From a virus: a stretch of 55,033 bases of DNA. How positions within the stretch are numbered: position 1 is the first letter of the stretch; every line of letters starts with the position of its first letter. Positions 37,021 to 55,033 of the stretch are shown here, one piece after another. The notes below the pieces were generated by a model. That model was not told the DNA's origin and did no database searches. It saw only the letters and a list, made by a program, of their open reading frames with translations. The stretch is taken from the UHGV virus genome UHGV-0072939; one strand, given 5' to 3'. The position numbers were made by a program, and so were the translations under genes.

Positions 37021-37047
37021 GCCAAAGTTACCTTTGGCTATTTTTTT
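37021..37047 (+). terminator. intrinsic terminator downstream of the cI-like gene
   Basis: GCCAAAG-TTAC-CTTTGGC hairpin followed by TATTTTTTT. Confidence 0.7.
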
Positions 37048-37053
37048 ACCCCT

Positions 37054-37847: not shown

Positions 37848-37936
37848 ACACAACAGATAAGAGCATCGCCGGGCGACGGGCTCATAACCCAACCCACCCG
37901 GGCGGTTGCAGCCGCAGGTGCTCTTATCTGTTGTGT
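37848..37936 (+). other. perfect 18-bp inverted repeat (ACACAACAGATAAGAGCA / TGCTCTTATCTGTTGTGT) with 53-bp GC-rich spacer in a long untranslated leader
   Basis: read directly; right arm contains boxA-like TGCTCTTA; lies ~50 nt upstream of the first early ORF. Confidence 0.6.
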
Positions 37937-37985
37937 ATGGAGATAACTTACTGGCGGTGGCAGCCGCCGTTACGAGGGTAAACCG

Positions 37986-38357
37986 ATGAGCAATGATCGC
38001 ATGACCATAGTGCCCGATTTCCTGGGCGAACTGGATGCCGGGGTGTTCATGAACAAAATCGCGGCAGCTTTAAACACCACCGCGCTTGGTGTTCTGAATA
38101 ACGGCAGCAAAGGCAAAGTAGTCCTCACCTTTGACTTTGAGCGTATGGGTAACTCCGTCGAGGAGAAGCGCGTCAAGATCAAGCACAAGCTGAACTACAG
38201 CACCCCAACTCCGCGCGGTAAAGCCTCCGAAGAAGACACCACCGAAACACCTATGTGGGTTAACAAAGGTGGCAAGCTGACCATCCTGCAGGAAGATCAG
38301 GGGCAGTTGTTCGGGATCAACGGCGGCGTTGACGGAAAGCTTAAAGCGGCACAGTGA
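37986..38357 (+). CDS. hypothetical early protein (123 aa)
   Basis: GAGGGT SD before ATG 37986; first gene of rightward early operon. Confidence 0.4.
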   Translation: MSNDRMTIVPDFLGELDAGVFMNKIAAALNTTALGVLNNGSKGKVVLTFDFERMGNSVEEKRVKIKHKLNYSTPTPRGKASEEDTTETPMWVNKGGKLTILQEDQGQLFGINGGVDGKLKAAQ

Positions 38358-38410
38358 TCCGCAGCAGACAAATCACTGACATCACTTTGACCACATATTA
38401 AGGAAATTTT

Positions 38411-39241: not shown

Positions 39242-39377
39242 TTGCATTGCCTTAATTGCCCTGCGCGCCGGGGCAATTAGTGAAGCGTAATTCCGTTAAT
39301 TATCGCCACCTGGCGAGGGATTCGCATACCCAAAAACAGCCGCAGGTGCAGCTGCGAAAATATGGAGAAGTACAGCG

Positions 39378-39917
39378 ATGAGCTATATCCAGACACTTTC
39401 TGGCAAGCATTTTGACTACATCAACGCCACCACTGACGATATTGATATCGAAGATATCGCCAACGCGCTTTCTAATATCTGTCGCTTCGCCGGCCACCTG
39501 CCGGAGTTCTACAGCGTCGCCCAGCACTCTGTGCTAGCCAGCCAGATTGTACCGCCTGAGCTTGCCCTGGAAGCGCTGCTGCACGATGCGGCGGAAGCCT
39601 ACTGCCAGGACATTCCGGCGCCGCTGAAAGCCCTGCTGCCGGATTACCGCCGCATTGAAACGGAGGTGGATGACTTGATCCGCAGCAAGTTCAACCTCCC
39701 GATGCACCAGACGGACGTGGTGAAGTATGCCGACCTGATGATGCTGGCCACTGAGCGGCGCGACCTCGAGATCGATGACGGGTCAGTGTGGCCCTGCCTC
39801 GAGGGTATCCCCTGCTCCGATATCGTGCAGATTGTCCCGCTGCGACCGGGCCAGGCGTTTGGTCTTTTCATGAATCGCTTTAACGAGCTGATGGAGATCC
39901 GCAAATGCGCCGCCTGA
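39378..39917 (+). CDS. HD-domain phosphohydrolase (YfdR-like 5'-deoxynucleotidase)
   Basis: 179 aa; H...HD...D metal-binding pattern (AQHSV, LLHDAAEAY). Confidence 0.6.
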   Translation: MSYIQTLSGKHFDYINATTDDIDIEDIANALSNICRFAGHLPEFYSVAQHSVLASQIVPPELALEALLHDAAEAYCQDIPAPLKALLPDYRRIETEVDDLIRSKFNLPMHQTDVVKYADLMMLATERRDLEIDDGSVWPCLEGIPCSDIVQIVPLRPGQAFGLFMNRFNELMEIRKCAA

Positions 39918-40120
39918 AGGTGAAAGAACTTGTCACAGAGGCGCATGCCGCTGTGCCGGGACTACCACCAGCTACAGCAGCGCTGATGCGCGAGATGGCG
40001 ACCAGACTCGATGTCACCTTTACAGCATTGACCGAGTTGATGGATCAGCGGGTGGCGCTTATGGCTGAAATCGAATGTCTGCGTGACAGCAGCAGCGTTA
40101 GTAAGGAGCGTGCAGCGTGA
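39905..40120 (+). CDS. hypothetical small protein (71 aa)
   Basis: ORF overlapping neighbours by a few nt; no family recognised. Confidence 0.35.
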   Translation: MRRLKVKELVTEAHAAVPGLPPATAALMREMATRLDVTFTALTELMDQRVALMAEIECLRDSSSVSKERAA

Positions 40121-40944
40121 CAGTTCATACATTAAGACAATGTCGTCCAGACCAGGAAGAGACAGAGTATTTCTGGAAACTTTTTCATGCTGCGCAGCGT
40201 AATGATGCTCGTTGGCACGGCAGTGAAATCGGCTTTATTGCTGAAGAACTTTCCCGCACGGATTTGGACCGCAACCAGAAGCTCTTTCTCCTGCGCGCCT
40301 GGCAGGTGCTCGTCGATGATAAAGGCGGGTTTGGGCGCTTTATGGGGGCGTTCGATACCTATGTGTTCAATATGCAGGATCCTGATGATGACTGCGTAGC
40401 GTGGAAACCTGAACTGAGCAAGCTGCTACAGGACGGTGATCTGCTGGATGTTGTGCTGGAGGCATATACCGAAGCGCAACGGCGCATCGCCGAGTTGGAA
40501 GCCAGAACGCTGGCAGTGAAGCTGCTAGATGAGTTTTACACCATCGCCGAAAATATCCACACTCAGGACAACCGGATCACTTCAGACCCGATGTTTTGCG
40601 TATACCAAAAGCGTGAAATTGTTGTCGATGCAGACTACGACTATGACCGCATTGTATGGGTTGATGAAGAAGGCAATGAAGCCAGCCCGCACCAGAGCGC
40701 GCGTCTTGAATTACTCCATGAAAACTTTCGCGAGCCGCCTGAAAAATGGCGCAGAATTGCGGTGAAAGAGATTGATGATTTCGTTACCTGCTGCTTTACC
40801 GAGCAGGGTTGCAAAGACTACTTGGCGTGCAATGGCCATAATCTTCGCCTGCCATTTATCTACGTAAAAAGCGGATTCAGGAATGCTGAATACATCGGCC
40901 TTCGAAACTGGTTAGCTGGCATCACTGTAAGCGAGGGAGAGTGA
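40117..40944 (+). CDS. hypothetical early protein (275 aa)
   Basis: ORF with ATGA-type coupling; no family recognised. Confidence 0.4.
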   Translation: MTVHTLRQCRPDQEETEYFWKLFHAAQRNDARWHGSEIGFIAEELSRTDLDRNQKLFLLRAWQVLVDDKGGFGRFMGAFDTYVFNMQDPDDDCVAWKPELSKLLQDGDLLDVVLEAYTEAQRRIAELEARTLAVKLLDEFYTIAENIHTQDNRITSDPMFCVYQKREIVVDADYDYDRIVWVDEEGNEASPHQSARLELLHENFREPPEKWRRIAVKEIDDFVTCCFTEQGCKDYLACNGHNLRLPFIYVKSGFRNAEYIGLRNWLAGITVSEGE

Positions 40945-40945
40945 T

Positions 40946-41365
40946 ATGGCTCTGACCAAAAAACAGCGTGCAGAATTGCGAATGAAGTTCGGCGGTCGCT
41001 GCGCTTATTGTGGTTGCGAATTGCCGGAAAAGGGCTGGCACGCCGATCACGTAGAAGCTGCGTTACGGAAATGGGAATTTGGGGACCGCCAGGCCAATGG
41101 AACACGCCGCACAGTTGCCACTGGAGAATTCTGGAAGCCTGAGAACGATTCTCTAGAAAACCTTTTCCCGGCCTGCGCCCCCTGCAATTTGTTTAAGGCT
41201 ACTTTCAGCATCGCACTATTCCGCCATGAGATAGCGCAGCAGGCGGAGCGTGCCCGCGCATACAGCGTCAATTTCCGCACAGCTGAACGTTTTGGCCTGG
41301 TTGAAGTGATAGAAAAGCCAGTTGTGTTCTGGTTCGAACGGTATCAGGAAGGAGTGCCAGCATGA
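40946..41365 (+). CDS. HNH endonuclease
   Basis: 139 aa; CxxC ... HADH ... CAPCN zinc/HNH motif arrangement. Confidence 0.7.
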   Translation: MALTKKQRAELRMKFGGRCAYCGCELPEKGWHADHVEAALRKWEFGDRQANGTRRTVATGEFWKPENDSLENLFPACAPCNLFKATFSIALFRHEIAQQAERARAYSVNFRTAERFGLVEVIEKPVVFWFERYQEGVPA

Positions 41366-41859
41366 CCAATAACAACCTGACAGAAGAAGAGTTGAACGGC
41401 CTCGCCGAAGAAATGCAGCTGTGCGCCAACCGCTGCCGACACCAGGGCTTGGAGGGTAACGCGCGGGAGTATGACCAAATTATTTGTGCCCTGCGCGAGC
41501 TTCAGCAGCGCCGGAAAGCTGATGAGCTGTCGATCCAGACAGCGCCAGCGCTGTATTCTTTATCAAAAACAGGCGAAGTGCGCTGTAGCAACTATCCGGT
41601 AATTCCGGATGGATACTGCATCATGCCTGTAACGCTGACTGCGGAGAATGGCGCGAAACGTGCTTTATCTGGTGAGTTCAGCATACCCCGTTCCGTTACT
41701 TGTCCTGAGTGTGGCGGCGACGGTTGCAGTGATTGTGATGGGCGCGGCGACTGGAATGAGGATCAGATCATTGACTGGCCGACAATAAAACTCATCTACC
41801 AAAAAGCAGTAGAAGCATGCGCAATAGCCGCAACACAGAAACAGGATAAATCAGCATGA
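41362..41859 (+). CDS. hypothetical Cys-rich protein (CPECGGDGCSDCDGRG zinc-ribbon-like)
   Basis: 165 aa; CxxCxGxG repeats. Confidence 0.4.
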   Translation: MTNNNLTEEELNGLAEEMQLCANRCRHQGLEGNAREYDQIICALRELQQRRKADELSIQTAPALYSLSKTGEVRCSNYPVIPDGYCIMPVTLTAENGAKRALSGEFSIPRSVTCPECGGDGCSDCDGRGDWNEDQIIDWPTIKLIYQKAVEACAIAATQKQDKSA

Positions 41860-42425
41860 ACCACTTAATGATCGACCTCGAAACCATGGGTAACAAGCCA
41901 AAGGCGCCAATTGTCTCCATCGGTGCCGTGTTGTTTGACCCGCAGAGCGGCGCGCTGGGCGAAGAGTTTTACACGGCCGTGCAGCTCGAAAGTGCAATGG
42001 TACAAGGCGCGGTTCCTGACGGTGACACCATCATCTGGTGGATGAAGCAAAGCCCGGAAGCCAGAGCAGCGATTTGCGCTGATGATGCTATGCCTGTAGA
42101 TGCAGCGCTTTCCGAGTTGAGCCACTTCATCAACCGTCACGCGGACAACCCGAAATATTTGAAGGTGTGGGGCAATGGCGCAAACTTCGACAACGTCATT
42201 ATTCGAGGCGCGTACGAGCGTGCCGGCCATATTTGCCCCTGGCAATTCTGGAACGATCAGGACGTGCGCACGATGGTGACCCTCGGTCGCGCTATTGGCT
42301 TCGACCCGAAGCGGGATATGCCGTTTGATGGTGAGGTGCATAACGCGCTGGCCGACGCCCGCCACCAGGCCAAATATGTTTCTGCTATCTGGCAGCGACT
42401 GGTGCCCACCAGCACCGAAGAGTAA
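41856..42425 (+). CDS. DEDDh-type 3'-5' exonuclease
   Basis: 189 aa; IDLETMG (exo I) and HNALADA (exo III) motifs. Confidence 0.75.
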   Translation: MNHLMIDLETMGNKPKAPIVSIGAVLFDPQSGALGEEFYTAVQLESAMVQGAVPDGDTIIWWMKQSPEARAAICADDAMPVDAALSELSHFINRHADNPKYLKVWGNGANFDNVIIRGAYERAGHICPWQFWNDQDVRTMVTLGRAIGFDPKRDMPFDGEVHNALADARHQAKYVSAIWQRLVPTSTEE

Positions 42426-42467
42426 AGGTAAATGCCCGGGTGCAGCCGGGCTGTGTGGAGAAACTAC

Positions 42468-42839
42468 ATGACCAAGTTGATCAACAAAAAAGTATGCGCC
42501 CTTACCGGACGACAGCGACAAGTTCTGGACTTTGTTACCCAGTACATCGCCAGTCACGGTATGCCACCCACTAAATCTGAAATCGCTGTCGGGATGGGAT
42601 TTTGCTCGACAAATGCAGCTGTTGAACACTTACGCGCATTGGAGAAGAAAGGCTTCATAGAGATACGTACTGGTGTTTCGCGCGGGATCATGCCTGTAGC
42701 AAAGCGAGAAATATCGCTACCATCCACCAGCAATGAAGATTACTGGTTTGATGGCACTTTTCAGCATCGGCGCTATGAGCGTGATATATGCAAAGCAGTT
42801 GAAGCGATGGGATTAAAGGTTTTGGGGGGTGGATCATGA
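42468..42839 (+). CDS. LexA N-terminal DNA-binding-domain homologue lacking the peptidase domain
   Basis: about 123 aa from ATG 42468 (GGAG SD); LTGRQRQVLDFVTQYIASHGMPPTKSEIAVGMGFCSTNAAVEHLRALEKKGFIEIRTGVSRGI closely parallels the LexA winged-helix domain; no GDSM/KR domain follows. Confidence 0.7.
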   Translation: MTKLINKKVCALTGRQRQVLDFVTQYIASHGMPPTKSEIAVGMGFCSTNAAVEHLRALEKKGFIEIRTGVSRGIMPVAKREISLPSTSNEDYWFDGTFQHRRYERDICKAVEAMGLKVLGGGS

Positions 42840-43045
42840 ATCTTGAATGCGTACCCATATCAACTTACTGCCGTGACTCCGGCGAGACCGTAGAAGCTGT
42901 TAATAAACGGATACAAAGGGGATTATGGCAGGAAGGGGTCCATATATTAAAGATCGATGGCGTAAAAGAGCGCTGGATTGATTTAACTGAGGTCACGAAA
43001 TGGGCGAGAAAAAACAAGGATCCTTACAGCTCCCACGCGGTATAA
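42836..43045 (+). CDS. excisionase-like protein
   Basis: 69 aa immediately upstream of and overlapping the integrase gene. Confidence 0.5.
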   Translation: MNLECVPISTYCRDSGETVEAVNKRIQRGLWQEGVHILKIDGVKERWIDLTEVTKWARKNKDPYSSHAV

Positions 43046-44175
43046 CCGCGCGCCATCATAAGAACGGCTCAACACTTATTATCACGTTCACATATAAAGG
43101 GGTTCTATGCCGGGAACCCCTTTCCCGTATCGAGCTGAATCCAAAGGGTATAAAATATGCAGAACGCCTCCTGGGAGAGGTTCAGAACAGAATTGCGGAG
43201 GGTGATTTCGATTATGCCAAATACTTCCCAAAATCTAAGAAGTTGGATATTTTTGGGAAAGTTAACCGGACAAAAAACATCAAGTCTTATCTCGATGAAT
43301 ATCTGGAGATCTGCGCAAATCGAAACTTATCGCCATCGACAATTGGAGGGTATGAAAAATGCCTCTCAGCTCTGTCTGATTTACATAAACTACACGTCGC
43401 CGAGCTTACACCGGCAGTATTGAAAAACTGGATCGCCAGCCGGAAAACAAAGCTTAAAACGATACGAAACAACCTCTCATTTTTGCGTAGCGCAATCGAT
43501 GAGGCAGTGACTGATGGGCTGTTGACGATAAACCCGGTTACGCTTGTCAGCGCCAGCCGGTACCACGTGATCGACAGCACGCCGAACCCCGACGATTACG
43601 AGGTGGATCCGTTCACACCTGCAGAGGCCAGCGCCATTTACATGCACTGCAGGTTTCAGGAATGGGAAAACCTGTTCCGCTTTGCATTTAACACCGGGAT
43701 GCGTAGTTCTGAACTGTGCGCGTTGCGCTGGCCTGATATCGACTTTATCGAGAATACTGCTCACGTTCAGGCAGCCAGCGTTGTCGGTGTGCTGAAGGGT
43801 ACCAAGACAAAAGCTGGTACCCGTAAAGTCGAGCTGAATAGCGATGCGCTGTCGGCGCTGCAGGCGCAAAAGCCATTCACCTTTATGAAGAGCGATTTCA
43901 TCTTCAGCGATCCTAAAACAGAGAAACCATGGGCAAACGCTGATGCGATTCGAAAAAAGGCCTGGGTCCCCACGTTGAAGAAAGCAGGAGTTCGGTACCG
44001 AAACCCATATCAAACACGCCATACGTTCGCTACGCGCCACATCAGCCAAGGCGTTAACCTTTTCTGGTTGGCCGGGCAAATGGGGCACAAAGGACCGGAA
44101 ATGTTGTTCCGTCACTATGGTTCCTACCTGGCTGCTTATGATGGGAAAACGGCAATTGAAGCGAGGAAATTTTGA
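43000..44175 (+). CDS. tyrosine integrase (lambda Int family)
   Basis: 391 aa; C-terminal catalytic region with R...HTFATRH...Y pattern (RHTFATRH, HYGSY). Confidence 0.9.
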   Translation: MGEKKQGSLQLPRGITARHHKNGSTLIITFTYKGVLCREPLSRIELNPKGIKYAERLLGEVQNRIAEGDFDYAKYFPKSKKLDIFGKVNRTKNIKSYLDEYLEICANRNLSPSTIGGYEKCLSALSDLHKLHVAELTPAVLKNWIASRKTKLKTIRNNLSFLRSAIDEAVTDGLLTINPVTLVSASRYHVIDSTPNPDDYEVDPFTPAEASAIYMHCRFQEWENLFRFAFNTGMRSSELCALRWPDIDFIENTAHVQAASVVGVLKGTKTKAGTRKVELNSDALSALQAQKPFTFMKSDFIFSDPKTEKPWANADAIRKKAWVPTLKKAGVRYRNPYQTRHTFATRHISQGVNLFWLAGQMGHKGPEMLFRHYGSYLAAYDGKTAIEARKF

Positions 44176-44283
44176 GTCCTTCCTGACGGAGGGAGGACAT
44201 CGCAAGGACATGAAAATGCACGTAAAATGCACTCACAGAGTTTTTAAAAGTTAATTTTGTTATATATCAATACATTAAGATAG

Positions 44284-44319
44284 TTTCGGACACGGGTTCA
44301 ACTCCCGCCAGCTCCACCA
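44284..44319 (+). other. prophage attachment site: partial copy of the tmRNA (ssrA) 3' end
   Basis: TTTCGGACACGGGTTCAACTCCCGCCAGCTCCACCA matches the recalled 3' end of E. coli tmRNA with one mismatch; upstream sequence is not tmRNA, so this is a partial att copy. Confidence 0.7.
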
Positions 44320-44448
44320 ATCATGATTGGACGGTGTAAGGACAACACCAACAAAAACAGGAAGTTAGAAGTCTCAGCAAAACACCGACCAGACGGTGAG
44401 GAGACATAAAAGGATACGCAAAGGAGCCGCGGCTCCTGGTAACATGAA

Positions 44449-44470
44449 AGCCCACAGATGTGGGCTTTTT
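44449..44470 (+). terminator. intrinsic terminator hairpin (bidirectional context)
   Basis: AGCCCAC-AGAT-GTGGGCT followed by TTTTT; lies just past the 3' end of the minus-strand autotransporter gene. Confidence 0.6.
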
Positions 44471-44479
44471 CGTTGATGG

Positions 44480-47400
44480 TCAGAACGACCAGTTCACACC
44501 AGCTACCGCGTTCCACGGGGATTCCACACCGGCACTATGGCTATACCCCACCCCAAGATGCCCGCTTAACGTACTGCTGAATGAGGCTTTAATACCTGCC
44601 TGGTATATTCCACGTCTGCCCGACAAATAATTGACGAAATTACCGTCACTATTCACTTTCACCCGGTTATCATCGACAAATTCTTTGCGCACAGCCGCCT
44701 TCAGCCACGGCTCAACTTCCATACCGTTCCCCAGACGCATGTTGTAACTCAGCGTTGCGCCCAGTTCACGATATATACTGCGGGTATCGACTGATTTCGA
44801 TTTCATGCCATTGGATAAATGATATTCGGGGTTATCAGCGGTGAACCCCGTTAACGATGCATACGGCGTCAGGTTCCAGTTACCATCGGTAAATCGCATC
44901 CCGGTTTCAATGTGACCGCCCAGCCCGTTGCTGTGGTAACTGCCATTGGCGGCTCCACCGCTGCTCATTTTACCTGCTACGTTACTTTTAAAACGGTTCA
45001 GCTTCACGACACCGTCCAGATAGAAACCACTTTCATGTTCCCAACTGGCATAGCCGCCCAGAGAATAACTGCCCACACTGCCATGTCCTCCGCGATCAAA
45101 ACCGATATGTGAATGGGAATAGCCCATAAAAGCGCCTAGCGTGGTAATTCCTTCAGGAATATCATTACGGCTGTCGATCCCCACTGTCATTCCGGTCAGC
45201 GTCTGCTCAAACCCGGCACCCGCATCGGTGGTGACATTATTACGGGTGTTATACGTCGCCCCCCAGACATTATTGTTGTGTGGACTCGCTTTCATTATGT
45301 TCAACCGCTCGCGAATACTGTTTAGCTCAGCATCAAATACCAACGGTAATGTTGCTGCCATATTGAGTACGGCTGCCGTAGAAGGCGTAATGCGTTTCTC
45401 CGGAACGGGTGTCGGCGTTGGATCGGGAGTAGGGTCTGGTTTTGGATTTGGGTCTGGCTTTGGATCGGGTTTTGGGTCTGGCTTTGGATTTGGGATGGGG
45501 TCCGGGTTGGGTTTGACATCATTGGTCAGGTTCCAGTTGCTGTTGCCGTCACTTTTCAGGACATACTCATAGGTCCCAAGATCAACGAAACCGCCGGTAT
45601 TGCCCAGCGTAAACGAAGCATCCCCTCCCCCTGTTTTCACCAGCGTCATCGCGTCGTCAGACTGTGGGCTGACGCCGGTATCCTGAACAAAGATTTTAAA
45701 ATTACCAGTGGCGTTGTTGTTGACGACCAGTTGATCGCCCCGGGAGCCTGCAACGTTGGTATGCAGGTAGAAATTACCGCTACCGGAAAGTTCATTGGTT
45801 GTCAGCGTATTGTAGATACCGTTAGTTGTGGCAGGCGCTGCTGTTTGTGCTGACAAATAAACATCACCGTCGTTGAGTAGCAAACTGTTTACTCTATATT
45901 CGCAGTTGCTGGTACCTGCACAGGAATTATTGCTGTTAAGCCAGACACTGCCCCGGCTGGCAGCCGTCAGGTCGGCAAGCGTGGTATCGACGCCATTTCC
46001 CAGAGTCAATGTCGCGCTATCGGTAATCCGGACCGCCCCTTCGAGTTTAACTGGCGTAACATTATCCCGTGGCGTCATTAACGACAGGCTTCCTGTCGCG
46101 CCACTGACCGATGCATCCGCCAGCGTACCTGCGTAGACGATTGCCGTACCGCCAGCGACCTGGAGATCTTCTGCCCGGGCCAGAGCCTGAAACTCATCTT
46201 TTGACCGCCCAAGGGTATATTGCCCGCCAGAGTTAACCTTTGTGGCGGAGTCCTGACCCAGGTTTTGCATTGCCCCACCCTTGCCAACCGTGGAGTCGCG
46301 AGCTTCGGTACCTGCTAATACCAATAAATTACCGCCATTTTCCAGCAACATATTAGTCGCTAAATTGCCGGAAATGGAAAAAGTACCGTACTGGTGAGTA
46401 CCGCTGATTTCAATACCGTTAGCCGTGCTCGTCTGGAGAGCGGCACCGCTGTTCTGGACGATATCTGTCGCTTTGCCATTATCGTTGACTGTCAGCGTAC
46501 CGCCTTCATTGATCTTTGTTTTTATTGCCTCTCCGTTAGCTGAAACTGTTTGTATTCCGCCGTCGTTAATTGTTGTCTCATTCGCCACACCCTCGACAAT
46601 TTGTTCACCGCCGGTGAGCGTCGTGCCTGTCGCAGTGGCTTTTGTTTTGACGATCTCCCGTCCGCCCATATTGACCTGTGTTTTGTCAGAAGAGGTGTCT
46701 GACTCCACGGTTAACACGCCGCCATTTGCCAGCAGGATATTGTTCGCCGCACCCTGCTCGATGCTGAACGCGACGCCATCCGCGCGTGTTCCTGTGACCC
46801 GCGTCGCCCTGGTGGTTGCAACCAAAGCGCCCTGGCTACTCTGCTGTATCCCCGTTGCGCTGCCTTTCTCCCGCACATCGAGTGTGCCGCCGTCATTAAG
46901 CACCGAGTTTTCAGCCAGACCGCCCTCATTAACTACCTGTGAACCCCCATTAATAATGGAACCTTCCGCTGTCCCGTTTGCCATAATTTGTTGTAGGCCA
47001 GAGACGATATCGGTATTGATTGCCTTACCATAATTCTGAACGGTTTGCGTGCCACCATTGATGTGTGTTTTCTCTGTTGACCCACCATCAACAATTTGTT
47101 CACCACTTTCGATATTTGCTTCAGTGGCTAAACCATATACCGTTTGCTTGCCACCTTTGATATTTGCTTTATCAGAAGTGGCACTGGCATATATTGTTTG
47201 GGTGCCAGCACTATTGAGTACAGTGCCAACATCTTTTCCATAAACATCCATTTTGCCGTTGGCATTAATAATCGTGTCAACTGCGCGGGAACCAGTGACG
47301 ACTGTTAATGAGCCAGCGTTTTCCAGCACTACATTTTTAGCTTCTGAATTCCTGATGTAGAAAGCATCACCATAACTGTTGGTTCCTTCGATAAGTGTTC

Positions 47401-49060
47401 CGGAGGTCGTGGAAGCAATTAATGCGCCGCCGGATTGTTGCTCAACATGCTTAGCCTCACCACCGTCCTGAACCTCCAGAACGCCGCCATTATTAAGTCT
47501 GGTGCTATCTGTTTTAGCCTCCTTCTGGACAATCAGCTTACCGCCAGTATCAATGGTAGTATTTTTCGCCGAGGTTTTAGCCACTACCGTCAGTTCGCCG
47601 GTATTTTCCAGCACAACATAATTAGCCTCCCCTCCGGTAATAGTGAAGTGAGAGAGCTTGTTGTATCCTTCGATATCAGTCCCTGCACCCGTGTTGGCAA
47701 CTAAAGCACTGCCCGTCTCCTGGTTAACCCCATGTGCAATACCGCCGGTATAGACAATCAGCGAGCCTCCGGCGCTAATATTGCTGCCAATTGCCGTACC
47801 ATCTTTCTCAACAACCTGCCGGCTCCCGGAGGATATAATTGTTGTGTCAGCTTTCCCGCCGCTTTTGATATTTTGCGTTCCGCTGTTGATATTGGTGCCT
47901 GTGGCTATGCCATAATTATTAATATTCTGTGTGCCACCATTAATTATGGTATTTGTCGCGTTTCCTGCAACATCCATAACCCCGCCATTATCTATTCGGG
48001 TCGCATCAGCTTTAGCATTGGTTAAAACTGACATTGTTCCTTTATCTTTAATAATCGTCTTGTTTGCCGAACCATATGCGTTTATGTCTAAATGACCACC
48101 GTTTTCCAGCAACACATTGTCTGCCACGTGATTGTGGATGGAGAATGCACCTTCACTATTCGTACCGCTCACCGTCGTACCGTTAGTGTTAGTTTTTAAA
48201 ATTGCACCATCGTGCTGGGTAACATTTGTTGCCGTACCACCACTAACATCAAGCACGCCACCAGAATAAACTTCAATAACATCCGAGGTGCTGGTGTTAT
48301 CAACAATTTGCGTGCCACCAGAATAGATATGCGTATTTTTTGCCGTTGACTTACTATTCAGAGACTGAGTTCCGCCTTCAATCGTCGTGTCCAGCGCACG
48401 GCTCTCATATACTCTTTGCTCACCGCCATTTTTAATGGTTGTTGTTTCTACTGTGCTCTGTTCAACATACTGTCGACCACCATTTATGGTTGTGTTCGTT
48501 GCCAGACTTCCTTGTACTACGTCCTGAGAGCCAGACTTATTTATCGTTGTACCATCAGCATGCCCTTGAACTTTTACTATCTGGCTACCACCATCAATGA
48601 GTATTCCATTCGCACTCCCTCCCTCTACGCGTGAAGCACCGCCCTTAATTGTCGTTCCATTGCTGATACCCCCTTTATAAACGTCCTGATTGCCACTCTC
48701 GATTGTCGTACCTGTGGAAATACCCCCGTCATGAATTGACTGTCTGCCACCGTTAATGGTTGTATTATTAGCCTGCCCCACAAAATTGTTATGACTTCCT
48801 ATATCTTGATATCCACCAGATTCAATAAGACTTCCATTAGATACCCCGCCATGAACATTCTGCTGGCCATGGTTGATAATATGAGTGTTATTTGTTGTAC
48901 CTCGTTCATCCACTTTTTGGTTGCCATCTACAGTCTCATCGTTTACCACACCAATAACATTAGTAGTGAAGGCAGCCATCCCGGGCGGGGCATATATCAA
49001 GGCAGATATCAATAAGGAAAGTACTGAGCGGCGACAATAATAGGGACTGGTCCTGTTCAT
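44480..49060 (-). CDS. ypjA: AIDA-I type autotransporter adhesin (type Va secretion)
   Basis: ORF 44480-49189; favoured start ATG 49060 (GAGG 9 nt upstream) giving MNRTSPYY... signal region; repetitive GG.Q.V passenger repeats, PKPDPKPDP linker, C-terminal beta-barrel ending NWSF; ypjA assignment from memory. Confidence 0.85.
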   Translation of the reverse strand: MNRTSPYYCRRSVLSLLISALIYAPPGMAAFTTNVIGVVNDETVDGNQKVDERGTTNNTHIINHGQQNVHGGVSNGSLIESGGYQDIGSHNNFVGQANNTTINGGRQSIHDGGISTGTTIESGNQDVYKGGISNGTTIKGGASRVEGGSANGILIDGGSQIVKVQGHADGTTINKSGSQDVVQGSLATNTTINGGRQYVEQSTVETTTIKNGGEQRVYESRALDTTIEGGTQSLNSKSTAKNTHIYSGGTQIVDNTSTSDVIEVYSGGVLDVSGGTATNVTQHDGAILKTNTNGTTVSGTNSEGAFSIHNHVADNVLLENGGHLDINAYGSANKTIIKDKGTMSVLTNAKADATRIDNGGVMDVAGNATNTIINGGTQNINNYGIATGTNINSGTQNIKSGGKADTTIISSGSRQVVEKDGTAIGSNISAGGSLIVYTGGIAHGVNQETGSALVANTGAGTDIEGYNKLSHFTITGGEANYVVLENTGELTVVAKTSAKNTTIDTGGKLIVQKEAKTDSTRLNNGGVLEVQDGGEAKHVEQQSGGALIASTTSGTLIEGTNSYGDAFYIRNSEAKNVVLENAGSLTVVTGSRAVDTIINANGKMDVYGKDVGTVLNSAGTQTIYASATSDKANIKGGKQTVYGLATEANIESGEQIVDGGSTEKTHINGGTQTVQNYGKAINTDIVSGLQQIMANGTAEGSIINGGSQVVNEGGLAENSVLNDGGTLDVREKGSATGIQQSSQGALVATTRATRVTGTRADGVAFSIEQGAANNILLANGGVLTVESDTSSDKTQVNMGGREIVKTKATATGTTLTGGEQIVEGVANETTINDGGIQTVSANGEAIKTKINEGGTLTVNDNGKATDIVQNSGAALQTSTANGIEISGTHQYGTFSISGNLATNMLLENGGNLLVLAGTEARDSTVGKGGAMQNLGQDSATKVNSGGQYTLGRSKDEFQALARAEDLQVAGGTAIVYAGTLADASVSGATGSLSLMTPRDNVTPVKLEGAVRITDSATLTLGNGVDTTLADLTAASRGSVWLNSNNSCAGTSNCEYRVNSLLLNDGDVYLSAQTAAPATTNGIYNTLTTNELSGSGNFYLHTNVAGSRGDQLVVNNNATGNFKIFVQDTGVSPQSDDAMTLVKTGGGDASFTLGNTGGFVDLGTYEYVLKSDGNSNWNLTNDVKPNPDPIPNPKPDPKPDPKPDPNPKPDPTPDPTPTPVPEKRITPSTAAVLNMAATLPLVFDAELNSIRERLNIMKASPHNNNVWGATYNTRNNVTTDAGAGFEQTLTGMTVGIDSRNDIPEGITTLGAFMGYSHSHIGFDRGGHGSVGSYSLGGYASWEHESGFYLDGVVKLNRFKSNVAGKMSSGGAANGSYHSNGLGGHIETGMRFTDGNWNLTPYASLTGFTADNPEYHLSNGMKSKSVDTRSIYRELGATLSYNMRLGNGMEVEPWLKAAVRKEFVDDNRVKVNSDGNFVNYLSGRRGIYQAGIKASFSSTLSGHLGVGYSHSAGVESPWNAVAGVNWSF

Positions 49061-49429
49061 AAATTTCATCCTCTGAAAAGTGAATACTGAGTAGCGTTTA
49101 AGCGACCTTAGCTTTGCTGCAACATCAGCCCACAGGCACCAGACCAGGGGATTCATCCTGAAGAGACAGCGCAAGTGTATTGTGTTCACCGCTCATCAAA
49201 GACATCATGATGAAATGATGATATTCCGCATAAGAATGAGGCATTTTTTAAACGCAGTGCGCTGAAGTGTGGTTGGATAAAAAAGTCAATCCATTCAGGA
49301 AATACGGGCGTATTCTTTTCTTTCGACAATGAGGCCGTTGGCAAAATAAAATGATTTACATAATCGTTTCTGATGAATATCTTCTGCTCACATAAAAATC
49401 ACACAATAACTTTGAGATCGCAGATTGTT

Positions 49430-49700
49430 TTACTTTTACAGCATTCGTCCCCCCATTGTTGGGCAAATATAGATTGGGCCAGAGCACGAAAGTTAATACC
49501 ACGTTCGCACAGCTCCTCCAACAGCACGACAAGATGCCACATACTGCGCCCCAGTCGGTTCAGTTTACAGACTAGCAGTGCGTTCCCTGCCGATGATGTC
49601 CTGACCAGTTTTTTCAGTCCGGACCTCCTGCCACGGTTTTACGTTGAAGTGGTAACCCTGAGCACGCAGTTCTTCAGTCAGGCGTGGTGCACCGTAACGC
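49430..49700 (-). pseudogene. remnants of a serine recombinase (invertase/resolvase) and possibly an IS3-family transposase fragment
   Basis: minus-strand translation gives KLNRLGRSMWHLVVLLEELCERGINFRAL (resolvase-like core without N-terminal catalytic Ser) and [15 protein letters not shown] in another frame; no intact ORF. Confidence 0.4.
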
Positions 49701-49971
49701 TGTTATTGCTGGGTAAGATCAAAAAACTTTCAGGCAGCTAAGGAAAGTTGAACCAGACATTAGATGAAATATTTCAACCAATTACAGCACCAATTCAGTC
49801 ACTGCCAGCCCACCAAATAAATCAAGGGGTTACATGAAAACGTAGCCCCTTTTTCTTTGGTAGTGACACTAAAATGGATGTAGTGTGAAGAATAATCCCG
49901 TTTACTCAATCAATAATACATATTGTTTCAATCTACGTTATTATCTCTTTGTAAAAATTGCCATTTATTAA

Positions 49972-50763
49972 TCATTGAAAACTGCTTTTAGAACTTGATA
50001 CAACGGGACTAGTCACAACAGGACTATTCTCAACGGGATCATCCTCAGAGGAACTATCATCAAAGTCATCATCCATAAATAAAATATCATCGAATGGTGC
50101 CACGCCCGTGATGAGTTTTATTTTATTATTACGATCAGTCAATACTCCACTTAAACCGTTTTCGCTCACAGGTTTTAATGATTTTTCATTACTCTTGTTG
50201 TAAGCAGGCGCATTAAAAATACACGGAATATCAACATCAAACAATGACGTTCCCCAGTTCACATATTGAATATCATAGTTACTGAAGTTCTGTCCAGAAA
50301 AGAAGCACCCCTTAAAATCCAATCCACGTAAATTATATAAACCACCCTCTTCTTTTTGGAGAGTAATGTTAATTTTGGCTATCTCCCGGACATCATCGCC
50401 ATTTTTGTATTTGAATACCGTTTCAAGATGTTCTCCAGACAGCTTGACTTCAGGAAATAATTTGAAATCAAAGCCTATATTATTATGTGTCAACGTAGAT
50501 GAACAAAAAATGGAAAAAGCTTGCAGTGCTGAATTATAGCTATCGATTTTATCTTGAGGCTGAGCTCTTGGTAAAAACTTATAGCAACACTCATAAAAAT
50601 TAAACAGAAGCTCTGAAGACCTTGTATTTTTATCAAATAATACCCCCTTGAACTCATTCACAAACGCATCTTTTTTTTCTTGAATATCTATGGGGTGTTC
50701 CTTTGACTCTGACAAAGATGAAATCTCATCTATTTTGTTTTCATATGAATTACGTGATTCCAT
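49972..50763 (-). CDS. hypothetical protein (263 aa), AT-rich
   Basis: long ORF in strongly AT-rich DNA; no family recognised. Confidence 0.5.
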   Translation of the reverse strand: MESRNSYENKIDEISSLSESKEHPIDIQEKKDAFVNEFKGVLFDKNTRSSELLFNFYECCYKFLPRAQPQDKIDSYNSALQAFSIFCSSTLTHNNIGFDFKLFPEVKLSGEHLETVFKYKNGDDVREIAKINITLQKEEGGLYNLRGLDFKGCFFSGQNFSNYDIQYVNWGTSLFDVDIPCIFNAPAYNKSNEKSLKPVSENGLSGVLTDRNNKIKLITGVAPFDDILFMDDDFDDSSSEDDPVENSPVVTSPVVSSSKSSFQ

Positions 50764-50862
50764 ACAGACATTTGGCGGCGTTTCTAAAATAACACTACGC
50801 GTACTACTTGGCTTAAGTAAACCAACATGAAAATCACTTTTTCTTATATTATCGAAAAGGTT

Positions 50863-51345
50863 CTATTCATTTCTTTTAGCGCATTCAAAAAACTGATCGG
50901 CATTATTTTTATTCGATAATTTTTTAGTTTCAGAAAACACATTTTCATTGTTTTCCAGCTTTAGTTTAATGAGAAGATTTTCCCAGACCTGCTTGCTTAA
51001 ACATATTACGTCAGGCTCACCAGAACTAACTAACTCGTGATTATTATTAAAGTGTACGTTGAATACCTTTAAGTTATTTTCACCAACTTCATATTTAATA
51101 CGTTTTAATTGTTCTCCAGTTCCCATAATGACAAAGGCGTTGCCTTCTTGATATATACATTCAGACATCATTTTTTGTAAAGTTTCAAGAGCACCGCGAT
51201 ACGTCTCTGATGCAGCTTCCTTACAAATTAATTTTAAAATACTATGAGCTAGTAGCTCCATGTGTTTAGAAGATTTATTTTCATTATAACTTCCACTACC
51301 CAAAACTGCGCTAGCGTTAAATCCGTTGCTTTTACTAACTAACAT
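50863..51345 (-). CDS. hypothetical protein (160 aa), AT-rich
   Basis: ORF in AT-rich DNA; no family recognised. Confidence 0.45.
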   Translation of the reverse strand: MLVSKSNGFNASAVLGSGSYNENKSSKHMELLAHSILKLICKEAASETYRGALETLQKMMSECIYQEGNAFVIMGTGEQLKRIKYEVGENNLKVFNVHFNNNHELVSSGEPDVICLSKQVWENLLIKLKLENNENVFSETKKLSNKNNADQFFECAKRNE

Positions 51346-52095
51346 TGTCTATTCCTCAATTAATGTCTACATGGCTATTTTTAATGTTATTACTGTTTGT
51401 CACTATAAAAAAACGCTCATTTGAGACAATTACTGACATTAACTGCTTCACTTGCTACGCATGGAACTTTTAATTAAATTAGCACAGGAATGTTAAATTT
51501 AATAAACAAAAGGTTATTTCGCTGTATGATAAAAAAAACCGTTATAATTTATTAGTGAAAATCGTTTTTCAAGTGTTAGAAATTTATATCTCAATAGCGT
51601 TGGTTAATGAGCATAGCCACGCTCCTGTAACGCTCACAAAACTCATCTGCCTGCGGCGGGTGTTCTGGTCAGTAGTAGATGTTTAAGGCGTGGCAGAGAC
51701 ATTTCATCCTTACTCTACGGCATTGTTCTACATACATTGGTTGTGGTACTCACTTATCATCAGTGAGCGAACAGAGAATAGTTCAGTGATTTGAGTAATT
51801 AACCTGATTAAATGAAGGGGTATAATAAATGATAATACTCTGGCTTTATCGTTAATTACTTAATTCCACATGTAAGCAATTTGCCCGCTTGGCATAGCAG
51901 GCATTTTTTCCAGGTACTTTTGAATGAGTACTGATGGATAAATACATTGCAGTGGCGTGCCACGTACCAAAACACCAGCCCTCATTCGAAACCACCCACC
52001 GCACTTCTTCCTTGAAATGGCGTTAGTCATGAAATATAGACCGCCATCGAGTACCCCTTGTACCCTTAACTCTTCCTGATACGTAAATAATGATT

Positions 52096-52171
52096 TGGTG
52101 GCCCTTGCTGGACTTGAACCAGCGACCAAGCGATTATGAGTCGCCTGCTCTAACCACTGAGCTAAAGGGCC
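52096..52171 (-). tRNA. ileY: tRNA with anticodon CAU, tRNA-Ile2 (lysidine) type
   Basis: reverse complement GGCCCTTTAGCTCAGTGGTTAGAGCAGGCGACTCATAATCGCTTGGTCGCTGGTTCAAGTCCAGCAAGGGCCACCA folds as a cloverleaf with GGTTCAAGTCC T-arm and CAU anticodon; matches recalled ileX/ileY. Confidence 0.9.
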
Positions 52172-52730
52172 TTGAGTGTGCAATAACAATACTTATAAAC
52201 CACGCAATAAACATGATGATCATATGATGTAAATAACAGATTTTTATGCGTTCCCATTCACCTTGGGTCGTGATTACACGCGACATAAAACCCGACACCG
52301 CCTCCATTCGCAAAGTCGATACTCGCAGTCAACAAGCAAATGTTAATAATTAGCACTATCTATAGTTATCATCGATTCAATGATACTTTGTAATGATTTT
52401 GTATCTAATAATATAACTTTATTACATTAGCTGAAGAGTTTTCGCATCATTATGATATCTGTTACTTTTCACTCCATAAAAATAAACTTCGTATAGCAAT
52501 ATATTCTTTCATAGATCTTATTCTGCTAATCATTAGTTTCGTATGAGCGATTTTTGACAGTTGCCTCTCCAGACCACATCGATAATTAATAAAACAGATT
52601 TAAGCATTATCCTTTTCCATATAAATATTGGATAAAAGTAGGACATCTGTTTGCAATTACTTTCACAACAATTAAACATTTTTATGTTTCCGTATACATC
52701 ATATTACTCTACCATTAGAGGAACTTTATT

Positions 52731-54983
52731 ATGTTTTCTATAAAACCAGGACCCAGAAATTTACCTATCGACAACCCCACATTGTTATCATGGAACATTA
52801 CTGACGGGGATCTAAATTCCAAATTAAATACATTAGAATATCTAAACTGTATAACAAATATTATTAATTCTTGTGGAGTTTACCCTCAAGGATTAAAAGA
52901 CAGAGAAATTATATCAACTTTTCACGCAGAAAAATTTATTAATGATCTGTTAAAAAACGATTATAAAATTTCCCTTTCTCCAGATACAACTTACCGAGAG
53001 TTGAATAAAGCAGCACAGCGTAGCATTACAGCGCCAGACAGGATAGGAGAAAGAAAAACATAGGTTTATCAACGAGATACAATGATTGAAAGAGGTGATA
53101 ACAGCGGTGTTTATCAGTATGGTCGTGCTGAACATTTCACCCACATTATATCTGACAAACCTTCCCCAAAAGATAAATATGTTGCATATGCTATTAACAT
53201 TCCTGACTATGAGCTGGCAGCCGATGTATATAATATTAACGTGACGTCACCTTCCGGACAGCAAGAAACATTTAAAATATTAATCAATCTAGAACATCTA
53301 CGGCAAACACTTGAGCGTAAATCTCTTACTGCTGTTCAGAAATCACAATGTGAAATCATCACCCCCAAAAAACCTGGCGAAGCGATTCTTCATGCTTTTA
53401 ATGCCACCTACCAGCAGATCAGAGAAAATATGTCTGAATTTGCACGTTGCCATTATGGGTATATACAAATCCCTCCAGTGACAACTTTCCGCGCCGACGG
53501 ACCAGAAACTCCCGAAGAAGAAAAGGGTTACTGGTTTCATGCTTATCAACCCGAAGATCTTTGTACCATCCATAATCCAATGGGAGATTTGCAGGATTTT
53601 ATTGCATTGGTTAAAGATGCTAAAAAATTTGGTATCGATATCATTCCTGATTATACCTTTAACTTTATGGGAATTGGGGGTAGTGGTAAAAATGACCTGG
53701 ATTATCCCTCTGCTGATATACGAGCGAAGATCAGTAAAGATATAGAAGGTGGTATCCCTGGCTATTAGCAAGGTCAGGTTTTGATTCCATTCATTAAAGA
53801 TCCAGTAACAAAAGAACGTAAACAAATCCATCCAGAAGATATACATCTCACTGCAAAAGACTTCGAAGCAAGTAAAGATAACATCTCTAAGGATGAATGG
53901 GAAAACCTCCATGCATTAAAAGAAAAGCGTTTAAATGGAATGCCTAAAACAACACCCAAAAGTGACCAGGTTATTATGTTGCAAAATCAATACGTTCGTG
54001 AAATGCGAAAATATGGCGTACGAGGTTTACGTTATGATGCGGCAAAACACTCAAAACATGAACAAATAGAAAGATCAATAACCCCACCGCTTAAAAATTA
54101 TAATGAGCGGTTACACAATACTAACTTATTTAACCCAAAATATCATAAAAAAGCCGTTATGAATTACATGGAATATCTGGTAACTTGTCAGTTGGATGAA
54201 CAACAAATGTCATCACTGCTTTATGAAAGAGATGATTTAAGCGCCATTGATTTTTCATTGCTCATGAAAACGATAAAAGCCTTTTCATTTGGTGGAGATC
54301 TTCAAACCCTTGCATCAAAACCGGGTTCCACAATCTCAAGTATCCCATCAGAAAGACGGATATTGATTAACATTAACCACGATTTTCCTAACAATGGTAA
54401 TCTTTTCAATGACTTTCTATTTAACCATCAACAAGATGAACAATTAGCAATGGCATATATAGCCGCTCTGCCGTTCAGCAGGCCTTTAGTTTACTGGGAT
54501 GGCCAAGTATTAAAATCAACGACTGAAATTAAAAATTATGATGGGTCCACGCGTGTCGGCGGTGAGGCGTAGCTTAATAAAGGTTGCTCTACCTATCAGC
54601 AGCTCTACAATGAATTCCACGCATTATATATAGATAAAGCAGGAATATGGAGCGCATTTGAGGGTGTATCTGCAACTAAAAACGTTCTGGCCTTTAGTCG
54701 TGGGGATTCTGTGAACATTAATCACTCTCCTCATGATGGACTAGTTATAATAAATAAAGGAAACGAAGAAGTTGAAGGTACCTGGCCTAACAAATTGCAA
54801 CCTGGAATATACAAAAACATGGGGAGTAATAGCGTTAACATTATTATTAATAATACCCGAAAAATTATCCCCCCTGGTAAAGTATTTACGCTTAGAGGCG
54901 GAACTCTAAATATCAATATTCCTGGGCGTAGCGCTCTTCTTTTAGGGAAAACAGGAGAACCGCCGAACTATCTCTATTTATAA
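52731..54983 (+). pseudogene. alpha-amylase-family (GH13-like) reading frame interrupted by three in-frame TAG codons
   Basis: four ORF-track segments (52731-53063, 53082-53768, 53781-54572, 54711-54983) share one frame; separated by TAG at 53061, 53766 and 54570; GLRYDAAKH matches alpha-amylase conserved region II. Confidence 0.6.
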
Positions 54984-55033
54984 TTTAATGTTATATCTGC
55001 CCCGATAAAACGGGGCAGATAATATGTTTAGTT

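Follow-up and report, generated by a model that had tools for sequence, protein, structure and literature searches.

The best-described counterpart of the DNA considered here lies on the chromosome of E. coli K-12. In the MG1655 record, ypjC (b2650) and ypjB (b2649) are both entered as CDS with protein accessions, in the order ypjA, pinH', ypjB, ypjC, ileY, ygaQ', and to the left of ypjA the cryptic prophage CP4-57 sits at ssrA. Several K-12 studies have touched on these genes. Genomic SELEX placed a constitutive sigma-70 promoter in the spacer between ileY and ypjC and marked it HNS (table entry 'TTATCA-18-TTTAAT ypjC < HNS < ileY'; PMC3946193); Hha is enriched at ileY and ypjC, and the ypjC transcript responds to it (PMC2408971); and deletion of ypjC gave a modest phenotype in mixed-biofilm colonisation (PMC3646849). 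In addition, one study employed ygaQ as a horizontally acquired gene under H-NS silencing (PMC7229825), and insertion of ter-operon elements at ileY is on record (PMC8193136). A literature search with the b-numbers returned nothing useful, ypjB being mentioned as a list entry only.

The window analysed here, a stretch of 55,033 nucleotides (UHGV-0072939), carries the same locus in the same order and orientation, where a region of 10,554 bp has just 7 substitutions relative to MG1655. The likeness ends to the left of ypjA where, unlike in K-12 with its CP4-57, there is a different, G+C-rich prophage. A sequence-only reading had described this region as two hypothetical genes, strongly A+T-rich, next to a tRNA-Ile2(CAU), and had taken them for a probable older, horizontally acquired islet. 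Its two ORFs are there, both on the minus strand, one of 263 aa (49972-50763) and one of 160 aa (50863-51345), and they are indeed richer in A+T than the prophage and the autotransporter gene. The picture of two genes, in contrast, did not hold. With high probability, 49972-51345 is a single orphan gene, ypjCB, restricted to E. coli and Shigella, which carries the amber lesion of K-12 and lies inside a dispensable segment of ~10.6 kb. It is a decaying orphan that is already known, in a segment already annotated in K-12.

Single-frame translation of 49972..51345 (minus strand) gives one frame of 457 codons with a single internal stop, an amber TAG at codon 161 (50863..50865, minus strand), common to the window and MG1655. 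The 5' part, which is ypjC of K-12 (50863..51345, minus strand), has 160 codons and closes at this stop; the 3' part, ypjB of K-12 (49972..50763, minus strand), begins at codon 195 of the full gene, a Met inside the frame. The ancestral codon is CAG (Gln): codon 161 is TAG in the window and in all K-12-type alleles, CAG or CAA in nearly all other sampled alleles, and AAG in one (L023), while a protein alignment (A1) has Q at position 161 in 19 of 20 proteins. Intact proteins 99% identical to the window's read-through are available for comparison (P0001-P0003). A single point mutation, C to T in the Gln161 codon (CAG to TAG), has killed the gene, and E. coli K-12 carries the identical lesion. 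Both halves fall on one NCBIfam model, NF050179 (YpjCB, 465 positions), the 160-aa piece at positions 1-160 with 313 bits and the 263-aa piece at positions 218-465 with 560 bits; each stays below the 650-bit whole-protein cut-off for the sole reason that the gene is split. At a near-identical locus the RefSeq label is 'ypjCB, pseudo, internal stop', and the window's copy is likewise a pseudogene member of the YpjCB family, matching it in sequence but not in having an uninterrupted frame.

The unit that is present or absent among genomes is larger than this gene. It measures ~10.6 kb, lies between an ssrA flank and glaH, and comprises ypjA, the pinH remnant, ypjCB, ileY and ygaQ. Its left part is ypjA/ehaD (44480..49189, minus strand), an autotransporter adhesin gene annotated as such at near-identical loci. 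The pinH remnant (49399..49638, minus strand; mapped from the coordinates of the MG1655 pinH pseudogene) is a fragment of a serine recombinase/invertase, a longer allele of which matches Pfam Resolvase, and it adjoins an IS3-related fragment with matches at ~49630-49716. At the other end, ygaQ (52731..54983, plus strand) is a pseudogene of 750 codons for a divergent GH13 alpha-amylase-like protein, traced through its ORF fragments and the MG1655 annotation. It has in-frame stops at codons 111, 346 and 614 and no frameshifts, which brings the segment to four nonsense codons across two genes; an intact ygaQ allele passes the Pfam cut-off for Alpha-amylase_C and narrowly misses it for the Alpha-amylase catalytic domain.

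As for the boundaries, positions 44284..44470 (plus strand) hold a duplicate of the ssrA 3' end with its downstream flank, an 89.9% match to the corresponding sequence of the ST131 strain ZH193. Here the prophage integrated at ssrA has its right junction and the islet begins on its left; in MG1655 the equivalent stub derived from ssrA is entered as the pseudogene psaA. In ZH193 itself, the only genome without the islet that was looked at, glaH comes straight after ssrA, no tRNA intervenes, and 333 bp take the place of the segment. Of the complete E. coli genomes, about 57-62% have the segment from ypjA to ygaQ, and 3078 of 5426 have ypjCB, always on the chromosome and nearly always as a single copy.

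An intriguing question is what the tRNA is doing beside these genes. Did it serve as the attachment site of an island? Or does it travel as part of the load? The gene, ileY (52096..52171, minus strand), has its 3' end towards ypjCB. ARAGORN finds the anticodon cat, and ARAGORN alone labels it Met; Rfam tRNA scores 73.8 bits, and all 76 nt are identical to MG1655 ileY, annotated tRNA-Ile(CAU). By fold, anticodon and identity it is therefore a tRNA-Ile2, as the sequence-only reading had said. The CAU anticodon of tRNA-Ile2 reads AUA after lysidine modification, which is predicted for ileY here. It is a second tRNA-Ile2 copy that moves with the segment; four spread-sampled genomes without the ileY flanks have one tRNA-Ile2 match each.

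Site-specific integration at the ileY 3' end, with the AT-rich genes as the remains of the island, would fit the position of ypjCB downstream of that end, which is the usual island geometry, and the use of ileY by ter-operon elements (PMC8193136). It would also fit the exact loss of homology at the ileY 3' flank in some genomes (H152) and the pinH recombinase remnant beyond ypjCB. Nevertheless, we consider it improbable. The ileY 3' end is not repeated anywhere in the window (searched with its final 25 nt at up to 3 mismatches and its final 14 nt at up to 2), no tyrosine integrase adjoins ileY, and the sole recombinase trace is the serine-invertase fragment 2.5 kb away. Moreover, the AT-rich DNA goes on past the other side of ileY, in ygaQ, and genomes free of the islet lack ileY together with the flanking genes. 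With ileY inside the variable unit, its adjacency does not show integration at a tRNA. The segment thus shares with tRNA-linked genomic islands the neighbouring tRNA, atypical composition, variable presence and a recombinase remnant, but it has neither the integrase nor the direct repeat; its tRNA is cargo, and the segment is anchored at its ends by the ssrA flank and by glaH. An inverted duplication around ileY was also looked for, and none was found.

The atypical composition is marked. G+C is 35.0% in the 263-aa ORF, 32.5% in the 160-aa ORF and 34.1% in ypjCB as a whole, with a GC3 of 28.8%; ypjA has 49.1% and the window's prophage 57-58%. Host genes have 54-60% G+C, and GC3 in glaH, lhgO and gabD is 67-72%. 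The right half of the segment, which runs from ypjCB to ygaQ, greatly exceeds the host in A+T, and AUA codons are many throughout, ATA making up 8/25 Ile codons in ypjCB, 21/66 in ygaQ and 20/90 in ypjA. In G+C, GC3 and rare codons alike, the DNA is strongly atypical for its host. It has the AT-richness, relative to the genome, of H-NS-type xenogeneic DNA, and it resembles acquired E. coli genes silenced by H-NS/Hha in its low G+C, rare codons, variable presence and the reported association of the ileY-ypjC spacer with H-NS/Hha in K-12. Of the acquired islet proposed from the sequence, the atypical DNA and the accessory presence stand, whereas the genes become one, the unit extends from ypjA to ygaQ, and ileY turns from landmark into cargo. 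The locus is neither conserved across the species nor host-like in codon usage, and the association with H-NS that had been expected of it is reported for K-12 (PMC3946193, PMC2408971, PMC7229825).

Intact alleles, of 449-492 aa, occur in divergent lineages, among them O157:H7 and O145 EHEC. Their DNA differs by up to 12% (dS up to 0.25), and the gene is a local hot spot of divergence, with 84-86% identity vs 95-100% in the flanks. Among the intact alleles dN/dS is ~0.7 overall and 0.36-0.52 in the C-terminal core; the C-domain is thus under weak purifying selection, from which it follows that YpjCB is, or recently was, a real protein. Loss is frequent: 11 of 18 sampled genomes have ypjCB as a pseudogene, with no fewer than six different lesions among them, and an IS3-associated deletion at the locus was seen in another lineage. 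Its rapid change and recurrent loss suggest a role that is conditionally useful rather than housekeeping. Together with this widespread decay, the depth of dS and the missing integrase and att repeat make the 'older' acquisition proposed from the sequence plausible. The overall dN/dS is also close to neutral, and some of the intact alleles may be functionally dead already.

What kind of protein is lost in this way? Intact YpjCB, of ~450-490 aa, has no signal peptide and no membrane segment. To judge from the models, its layout would be an alpha/beta N-domain, then a linker that is hypervariable and probably disordered, a helical-plus-beta C-domain with seven pentapeptide-like units at its end, and an acidic tail. 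The acidic, Ser/Asp-rich stretch DDDFDDSSSEDDPVENSPVV..., earlier placed at the N-terminus of the 263-aa ORF, is this C-terminal tail, because the gene lies on the minus strand. Two AlphaFold2 runs gave models of low confidence (pLDDT 41 with the whole protein, 50 with the YpjB part), and Foldseek against the PDB returned no match better than E 0.012, with a TM of at most 0.17 and no fold assignment. A PDB profile search with YpjCB and the PADLOC defence-protein models (E up to 1) gave 0 matches each, and the sole significant match in PHROGs, the unannotated phrog_30093, is the YpjCB family itself.

Relatives are equally few. HMMER, run exhaustively against 1.84 billion representatives, produced 45 matches, essentially all of them close relatives or fragments, and a one-genome-per-species scan found YpjCB in E. 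coli and Shigella only, plus one contaminated MAG. No homologs that would point to a donor lineage were found outside E. coli/Shigella; a phage reservoir was sought by tblastn of YpjCB against phages, with no match. The single distant match (P0164, E 5.9e-4) was discounted as spurious, since it goes back to a repeated 'GCYYSDQNFTN' motif in a 799-aa repeat protein with no relation to YpjCB. Kinship with YgaQ, which begins with MFSIK as do some YpjCB alleles, was also rejected as coincidence (best BLASTP E 4.5).

One likeness deserves to be described, that to the pentapeptide-repeat proteins (PF00805). Residues 338-372 can be divided into seven successive units of five (NLRGL DFKGC FFSGQ NFSNY DIQYV NWGTS LFDVD), position 1 being D/N and position 2 F/L/I/W, and, as in PF00805, short strands every five residues are predicted for this region in the model of the YpjB part. 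Unlike a family member, however, the fragment scanned alone reaches 12.2 bits (E 0.14), below the Pentapeptide cut-off of 20.2; the same model matches 0 of 20 full-length alleles, and Foldseek matched no beta-helix proteins to the YpjCB models. Membership calls for at least eight tandem units and a quadrilateral beta-helix, and with seven units of sub-threshold score YpjCB is not a member.

Could the intact protein be an unrecognised secreted factor, e.g., a substrate of the ETT2 or LEE type III secretion system or another factor directed at hosts or competitors, evolving fast under antagonistic selection and lost wherever it is of no use? The N-terminus, over its first 21 positions, is polar, rich in Ser and Asn and devoid of acidic residues, with no Sec signal or membrane segment in the protein; its pentapeptide-like units resemble the repeats of some effectors; its G+C is low, as in many effector genes; and the gene diverges rapidly, with a high dN/dS, and is intact in O157:H7 and O145 EHEC. 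On the other side, no homology to a known effector or Pfam family was found, and the repeats score below the cut-off. The N-terminal composition is at most suggestive. In no region of YpjCB does dN/dS exceed 1. The gene is a pseudogene in E110019 (identified by strain name alone) and is intact in several genomes of ~4.8 Mb, and no reports of secretion were found in the literature. We regard secretion as unlikely. It is similarly unlikely that intact YpjCB is an E. coli-specific, fast-evolving factor outside ordinary physiology (an ETT2/LEE substrate, or one directed at host, phage or competitor) with ileY aiding translation of the AUA-rich islet. If it were, YpjCB would be kept in O157:H7, O145 and others and repeatedly discarded elsewhere.

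It is very unlikely that ypjC and ypjB function as genes in their own right, as their separate entries in MG1655 would have it. Each ORF begins with ATG, Pfam keeps DUF5507 and DUF5508 as separate families, and a phenotype has been reported for the ypjC deletion (PMC3646849). Yet the two ORFs share one frame and are parted by one TAG, where the intact alleles read straight through codon 161 with Gln, and both NCBIfam and RefSeq have one gene at the locus. The two Pfam families tell the same story: DUF5507 matches the 160-aa piece end to end (1-160/160, E 1.9e-110, 366 bits) and DUF5508 the 263-aa piece (1-263/263, E 1.1e-186, 619 bits), both with a gathering threshold of 27 bits, and the model lengths are exactly those of the K-12 fragments (160 and 263), so that both families were evidently modelled on the pieces. 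The earlier verdict of no recognisable motifs is thus right for function and wrong for family matches. The start sites differ as well: the ypjC ATG has a GAGG Shine-Dalgarno sequence 9-12 nt upstream, but inspection of the sequence upstream of the internal ypjB ATG found none. Against the reading as one dead gene stand the K-12 deletion phenotype and the Hha response: the N-terminal fragment may retain some activity, or the effect of the deletion may be in cis.

That these frames are open by mere chance in non-coding, AT-rich DNA, an idea to which the lack of functional annotation, the lack of homologs found outside the species and the low-confidence structure models might lend themselves, can be dismissed as next to impossible, given that at 34% G+C a stop is expected about every 14 codons, that 457 open codons would arise with a chance of ~1e-15 and the 296 past the TAG with ~2e-10, that the frame is open in alleles up to 12% diverged, that dN/dS is below 1 and down to 0.36 in the C-terminal core, and that a Shine-Dalgarno sequence precedes the first ATG.

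How, then, might the broken gene be expressed? The spacer between ileY and ypjCB (51346..52095), put at about 750 bp in the sequence-only reading, is exactly 750 bp with 37.2% G+C, and it is 94-98% identical between divergent strains, i.e., better conserved than ypjCB. It holds the reported ypjC promoter: TTATCA-N17-TTTAAT (51807..51835, minus strand) is a motif match to the constitutive sigma-70 promoter, with a spacing of 17 nt in the window vs the 18 written in the table (PMC3946193). The number of promoter-like sites in the spacer shows no excess over the shuffled expectation, terminator-like sites are in marginal excess (4 vs 2.4 ± 1.5 in shuffled sequence), and an Rfam scan at E up to 1 found no family besides tRNA. 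A possible terminator, a G+C-rich hairpin with T runs (49824..49851), was picked up by pattern scan alone 120 nt past the ypjCB stop.

By analogy with K-12, H-NS and Hha would bind the DNA of the segment. The most that could be made from the good ribosome-binding site would be YpjC, the N-terminal fragment of 160 aa; the 3' part, having no such site, would probably go untranslated barring amber suppression. The locus as a whole is drifting toward loss, as the different lesions and IS-mediated deletions elsewhere and the three nonsense codons in ygaQ show.

The value of these results is mainly one of annotation: two hypothetical genes and two DUF families are pieces of one gene broken by a nonsense codon, and the neighbouring tRNA is cargo of a variable segment, not an attachment site. 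Beyond this, ypjCB is a compact example of the decay of a silenced orphan gene, with an unusually deep divergence of alleles and no new mechanism implied. A plasmid reservoir was considered and rejected, the matches being chromosomes mislabelled as plasmids, plus one small fragment. The latter, on an IncHI2 plasmid, is a 360-bp K-12-type piece between IS1 copies, and its apparent identity of 60% is a gap artefact.

The two AT-rich ORFs beside the CAU tRNA, ypjC (160 aa, 50863-51345, minus strand) and ypjB (263 aa, 49972-50763, minus strand), had been taken for two genes by the sequence-only reading. Are they? Read from 51345 to 49972, a single frame runs through 457 codons, with codon 161 as the sole internal stop, and one NCBIfam model of 465 positions (NF050179, YpjCB) spans both pieces, the 160-aa piece at positions 1-160 and the 263-aa piece at 218-465. 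With one frame, one TAG, and one model, they are a single gene, ypjCB. NCBIfam thus treats as one protein what Pfam divides into two separate families, DUF5507 (160 positions) and DUF5508 (263 positions), each of which matches its respective piece end to end; no other Pfam family was matched. Because these model lengths equal those of the K-12 fragments exactly, DUF5507 and DUF5508 appear to have been built from the two halves of a pseudogene.

Full-length YpjCB proteins of 449-492 aa are common among E. coli. Codon 161 reads TAG in the window and in every K-12-type allele, and nearly all the others sampled have CAG or CAA there (one has AAG): the amber lesion at 50863-50865 is one C-to-T transition in an ancestral CAG (Gln) codon. 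The first ATG of ypjCB is preceded by a GAGG Shine-Dalgarno sequence, and none was found upstream of the internal ATG that opens "ypjB". At the base composition of the gene, 457 open codons would arise by chance with a probability of ∼1e-15, and the 296 after the TAG with one of ∼2e-10; such open frames are so improbable that the ypjCB frame must be real and its lesion evolutionarily recent. The amber suppressor supE inserts Gln. Laboratory strains with supE would restore the exact wild-type residue at codon 161 with some efficiency.

The locus itself is not new. From 44480 to 55033, the only differences between the window and E. coli K-12 MG1655 are 7 substitutions; there are no indels. The tRNA (anticodon CAU, 52096-52171, minus strand), the only one here, is identical to MG1655 ileY, annotated as tRNA-Ile(CAU). 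The annotated order in MG1655 is psaA (ssrA stub), ypjA, pinH (pseudogene), ypjB, ypjC, ileY, ygaQ (pseudogene), and glaH, and newer RefSeq records give "ypjCB, YpjCB family protein, pseudo, internal stop". The object is already annotated, as the K-12 ypjCB pseudogene within the known variable ssrA-glaH region.

The composition and layout described from the sequence alone, i.e., the ORF sizes, the low G+C, the 750-bp spacer, and the CAU tRNA, hold when G+C and GC3 are computed. The G+C content is 32.5% for ypjC (GC3 27.3%), 35.0% for ypjB (GC3 30.7%), and 34.1% for both combined (GC3 28.8%); it is 37.2% for the ileY-ypjCB spacer (51346-52095), 49.1% for ypjA (GC3 47.8%), 57-58% for the prophage left of ypjA, and 54-60% for the host genes glaH, lhgO, and gabD of a near-identical strain (GC3 67-72%). 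AT-rich DNA (31-39% G+C) runs on beyond the tRNA up to 55033. A 20-nt inverted repeat, 85% complementary (52076-52095 and 52528-52547), flanks ileY and its upstream region and is probably a chance occurrence in AT-rich DNA.

How far does the acquired segment extend? Presence or absence across strains, one of the checks that had been proposed along with the islet, shows that ypjCB occurs in 3078 of 5426 complete E. coli genomes, always on the chromosome and in a single copy in nearly all carriers (at most two matches per genome); for the ileY-ygaQ-glaH stretch, coverage reaches 80% or more in 3355 genomes. The islet is absent from the ST131 strain ZH193, where ssrA is followed by 683 bp and then glaH, with no tRNA in between. 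The last bases of ssrA and ∼150 bp of flank in ZH193 match 44284-44470, ending 10 nt short of the ypjA stop codon, and the 199 bp ahead of glaH align with the far side of the islet; ∼10.6 kb in the window thus correspond to 333 bp in ZH193. These junctions define the presence/absence unit as ypjA, the pinH remnant, ypjCB, ileY, and ygaQ. The proposed islet stands as AT-rich DNA of variable presence, but it is larger than described, and the tRNA is part of it.

The tRNA counts place ileY as a second copy inside the segment: in a spread sample, each of the four genomes without the ileY flanks has only one match to tRNA-Ile2 (identity 96-97%), presumably ileX; genomes with the flanks have at least two. 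Within the window, no further copy of the ileY 3' end was found, and no integrase adjoins ileY. The adjacency is real, yet it is no evidence for integration at ileY. The tRNA gene does serve as an insertion site for other elements (PMC8193136), and H152, a genome in which homology is lost exactly at the ileY 3' flank, is also such a case. Isoleucine is often encoded by the rare codon ATA in ypjCB (8 of 25 Ile codons), ygaQ (21 of 66), and ypjA (20 of 90); the counts for glaH and lhgO are 1 of 9 and 1 of 30. We infer only that ileY might aid the translation of its own AUA-rich islet. E. coli NIID080884 (12775-15109 of the comparison sequence) has no ypjA, ypjCB, or ileY; its ygaQ is truncated at the 5' end and borders an IS3-family element, and phage and integrase genes come next. 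Most of the islet has been deleted here in association with an IS.

The case for silencing of the segment comes from published K-12 work. In a genomic SELEX table, ypjC has a constitutive sigma-70 promoter (TTATCA-18-TTTAAT) in the ileY-ypjC spacer, with an HNS mark (PMC3946193); its motif lies at 51807-51835 (minus strand). Hha pull-down arrays show enrichment at ileY and ypjC, many Hha sites being H-NS-dependent, and Hha overproduction raises the ypjC transcript (PMC2408971). One study took the neighboring ygaQ, with its intragenic promoters, as an example of horizontally acquired genes that H-NS silences (PMC7229825). The reading of this DNA as acquired, silenced, and AT-rich is broadly right. 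In the window, ygaQ (52731-54983) has in-frame stops at codons 111, 346, and 614 and no frameshifts; an intact allele encodes a protein of 750 aa, amylase-like (GH13) but divergent. Together, these two adjacent AT-rich genes, ygaQ and ypjCB, carry four nonsense mutations and no indels.

The alleles of ypjCB share 88-100% DNA identity. In comparisons with O157:H7 EDL933 and another divergent strain, the least conserved region is 50751-51000 (84-86%), the linker that joins the two halves, with flanks at 95-100%. The linker (alignment columns 122-280, window ∼50700-50990) also varies in length: among the alleles, one 25-aa stretch (PPNVCME...RNSY) is tandemly duplicated, and there are insertions of 35 aa and 11 aa. 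Pairwise dN/dS among seven intact alleles and the repaired window allele has a median of 0.72, and dS goes up to 0.25; constraint is stronger in the C-terminal core (0.36-0.52). In a sample of 18 genomes that spans the identity range, ypjCB is intact in seven (EDL933, O145 RM8995-C1, CE0021a, PSJ-42, MRSN346638, S1-ZIM-01-A, and 1604D011) and a pseudogene in 11, with at least six different first lesions: TAG161, TAG119, and frameshifts with stops at codons 205, 112, 409, and 167. Some TAG161 alleles bear extra frameshifts. Truncated proteins of 204-205 aa occur on >170 contigs and intact 457-aa forms on >1000, and in one EHEC-like genome everything from ypjA into the 5' part of ygaQ is missing, beside an IS3. 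The pattern is that of a dispensable, weakly constrained gene, repeatedly lost.

Relatives of YpjCB were found only in E. coli and Shigella. Searched exhaustively with HMMER, 1.84 billion cluster representatives gave 45 matches, all close relatives or fragments save one, dismissed as spurious repeat similarity. In agreement, a one-genome-per-species scan (185,579 species) with two short peptide patterns found it only in E. coli, Shigella flexneri, and one "Planococcaceae" MAG contig. That 2.8-kb contig (DEQI01000374.1, Planococcaceae bacterium UBA3370) carries a ypjCB 99.85% identical to that of the window with the same TAG, and is for these reasons almost certainly E. coli contamination. On the conjugative IncHI2 plasmid NZ_MN732922.1, a 360-bp K-12-type fragment (7968-8360 of the comparison sequence, codons ∼169-296) lies between IS1-like sequences and looks like chromosomal DNA captured through IS activity.

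The protein had no PDB or PADLOC matches and no informative PHROG match. The AlphaFold2 models had a pLDDT of 41 for the whole protein and 50 for its C-terminal part, and Foldseek returned no meaningful match for them. In the best-modelled part, YpjB 100-170 (pLDDT 64-80), a three-stranded meander leads into short strands that recur every five residues; the sequence of this part can be written as seven pentapeptide-like units, and its Pfam Pentapeptide score is below threshold. The acidic Ser/Asp-rich stretch, previously placed at the N-terminus, is the C-terminal tail, with 11 acidic residues and 1 basic among the last 40; the protein as a whole has a pI of 5.2. Two papers' gene lists count ypjB among outer-membrane proteins (PMC7414163 among them), an assignment not borne out by the sequence, in which no signal peptide, lipobox, or hydrophobic segment was found (maximum 19-residue Kyte-Doolittle mean 0.74). 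The sole phenotype found in the literature is that of a K-12 ypjC deletion, with which a pathogenic strain colonized mixed biofilms somewhat better; constitutive ypjC expression had no effect (PMC3646849). A secreted or antagonistic role of intact YpjCB is possible but unsupported.

The left-hand prophage (1-44283) is a separate insertion at ssrA (junction 44284-44470), and most of it is G+C-rich (57-60%). Such a prophage is unusual in E. coli. Coverage of 36000-44479 stays below 80% in every complete E. coli genome, and over 1-24000 the best phage match is Citrobacter phage phiNP, with 75% identity over 38%.
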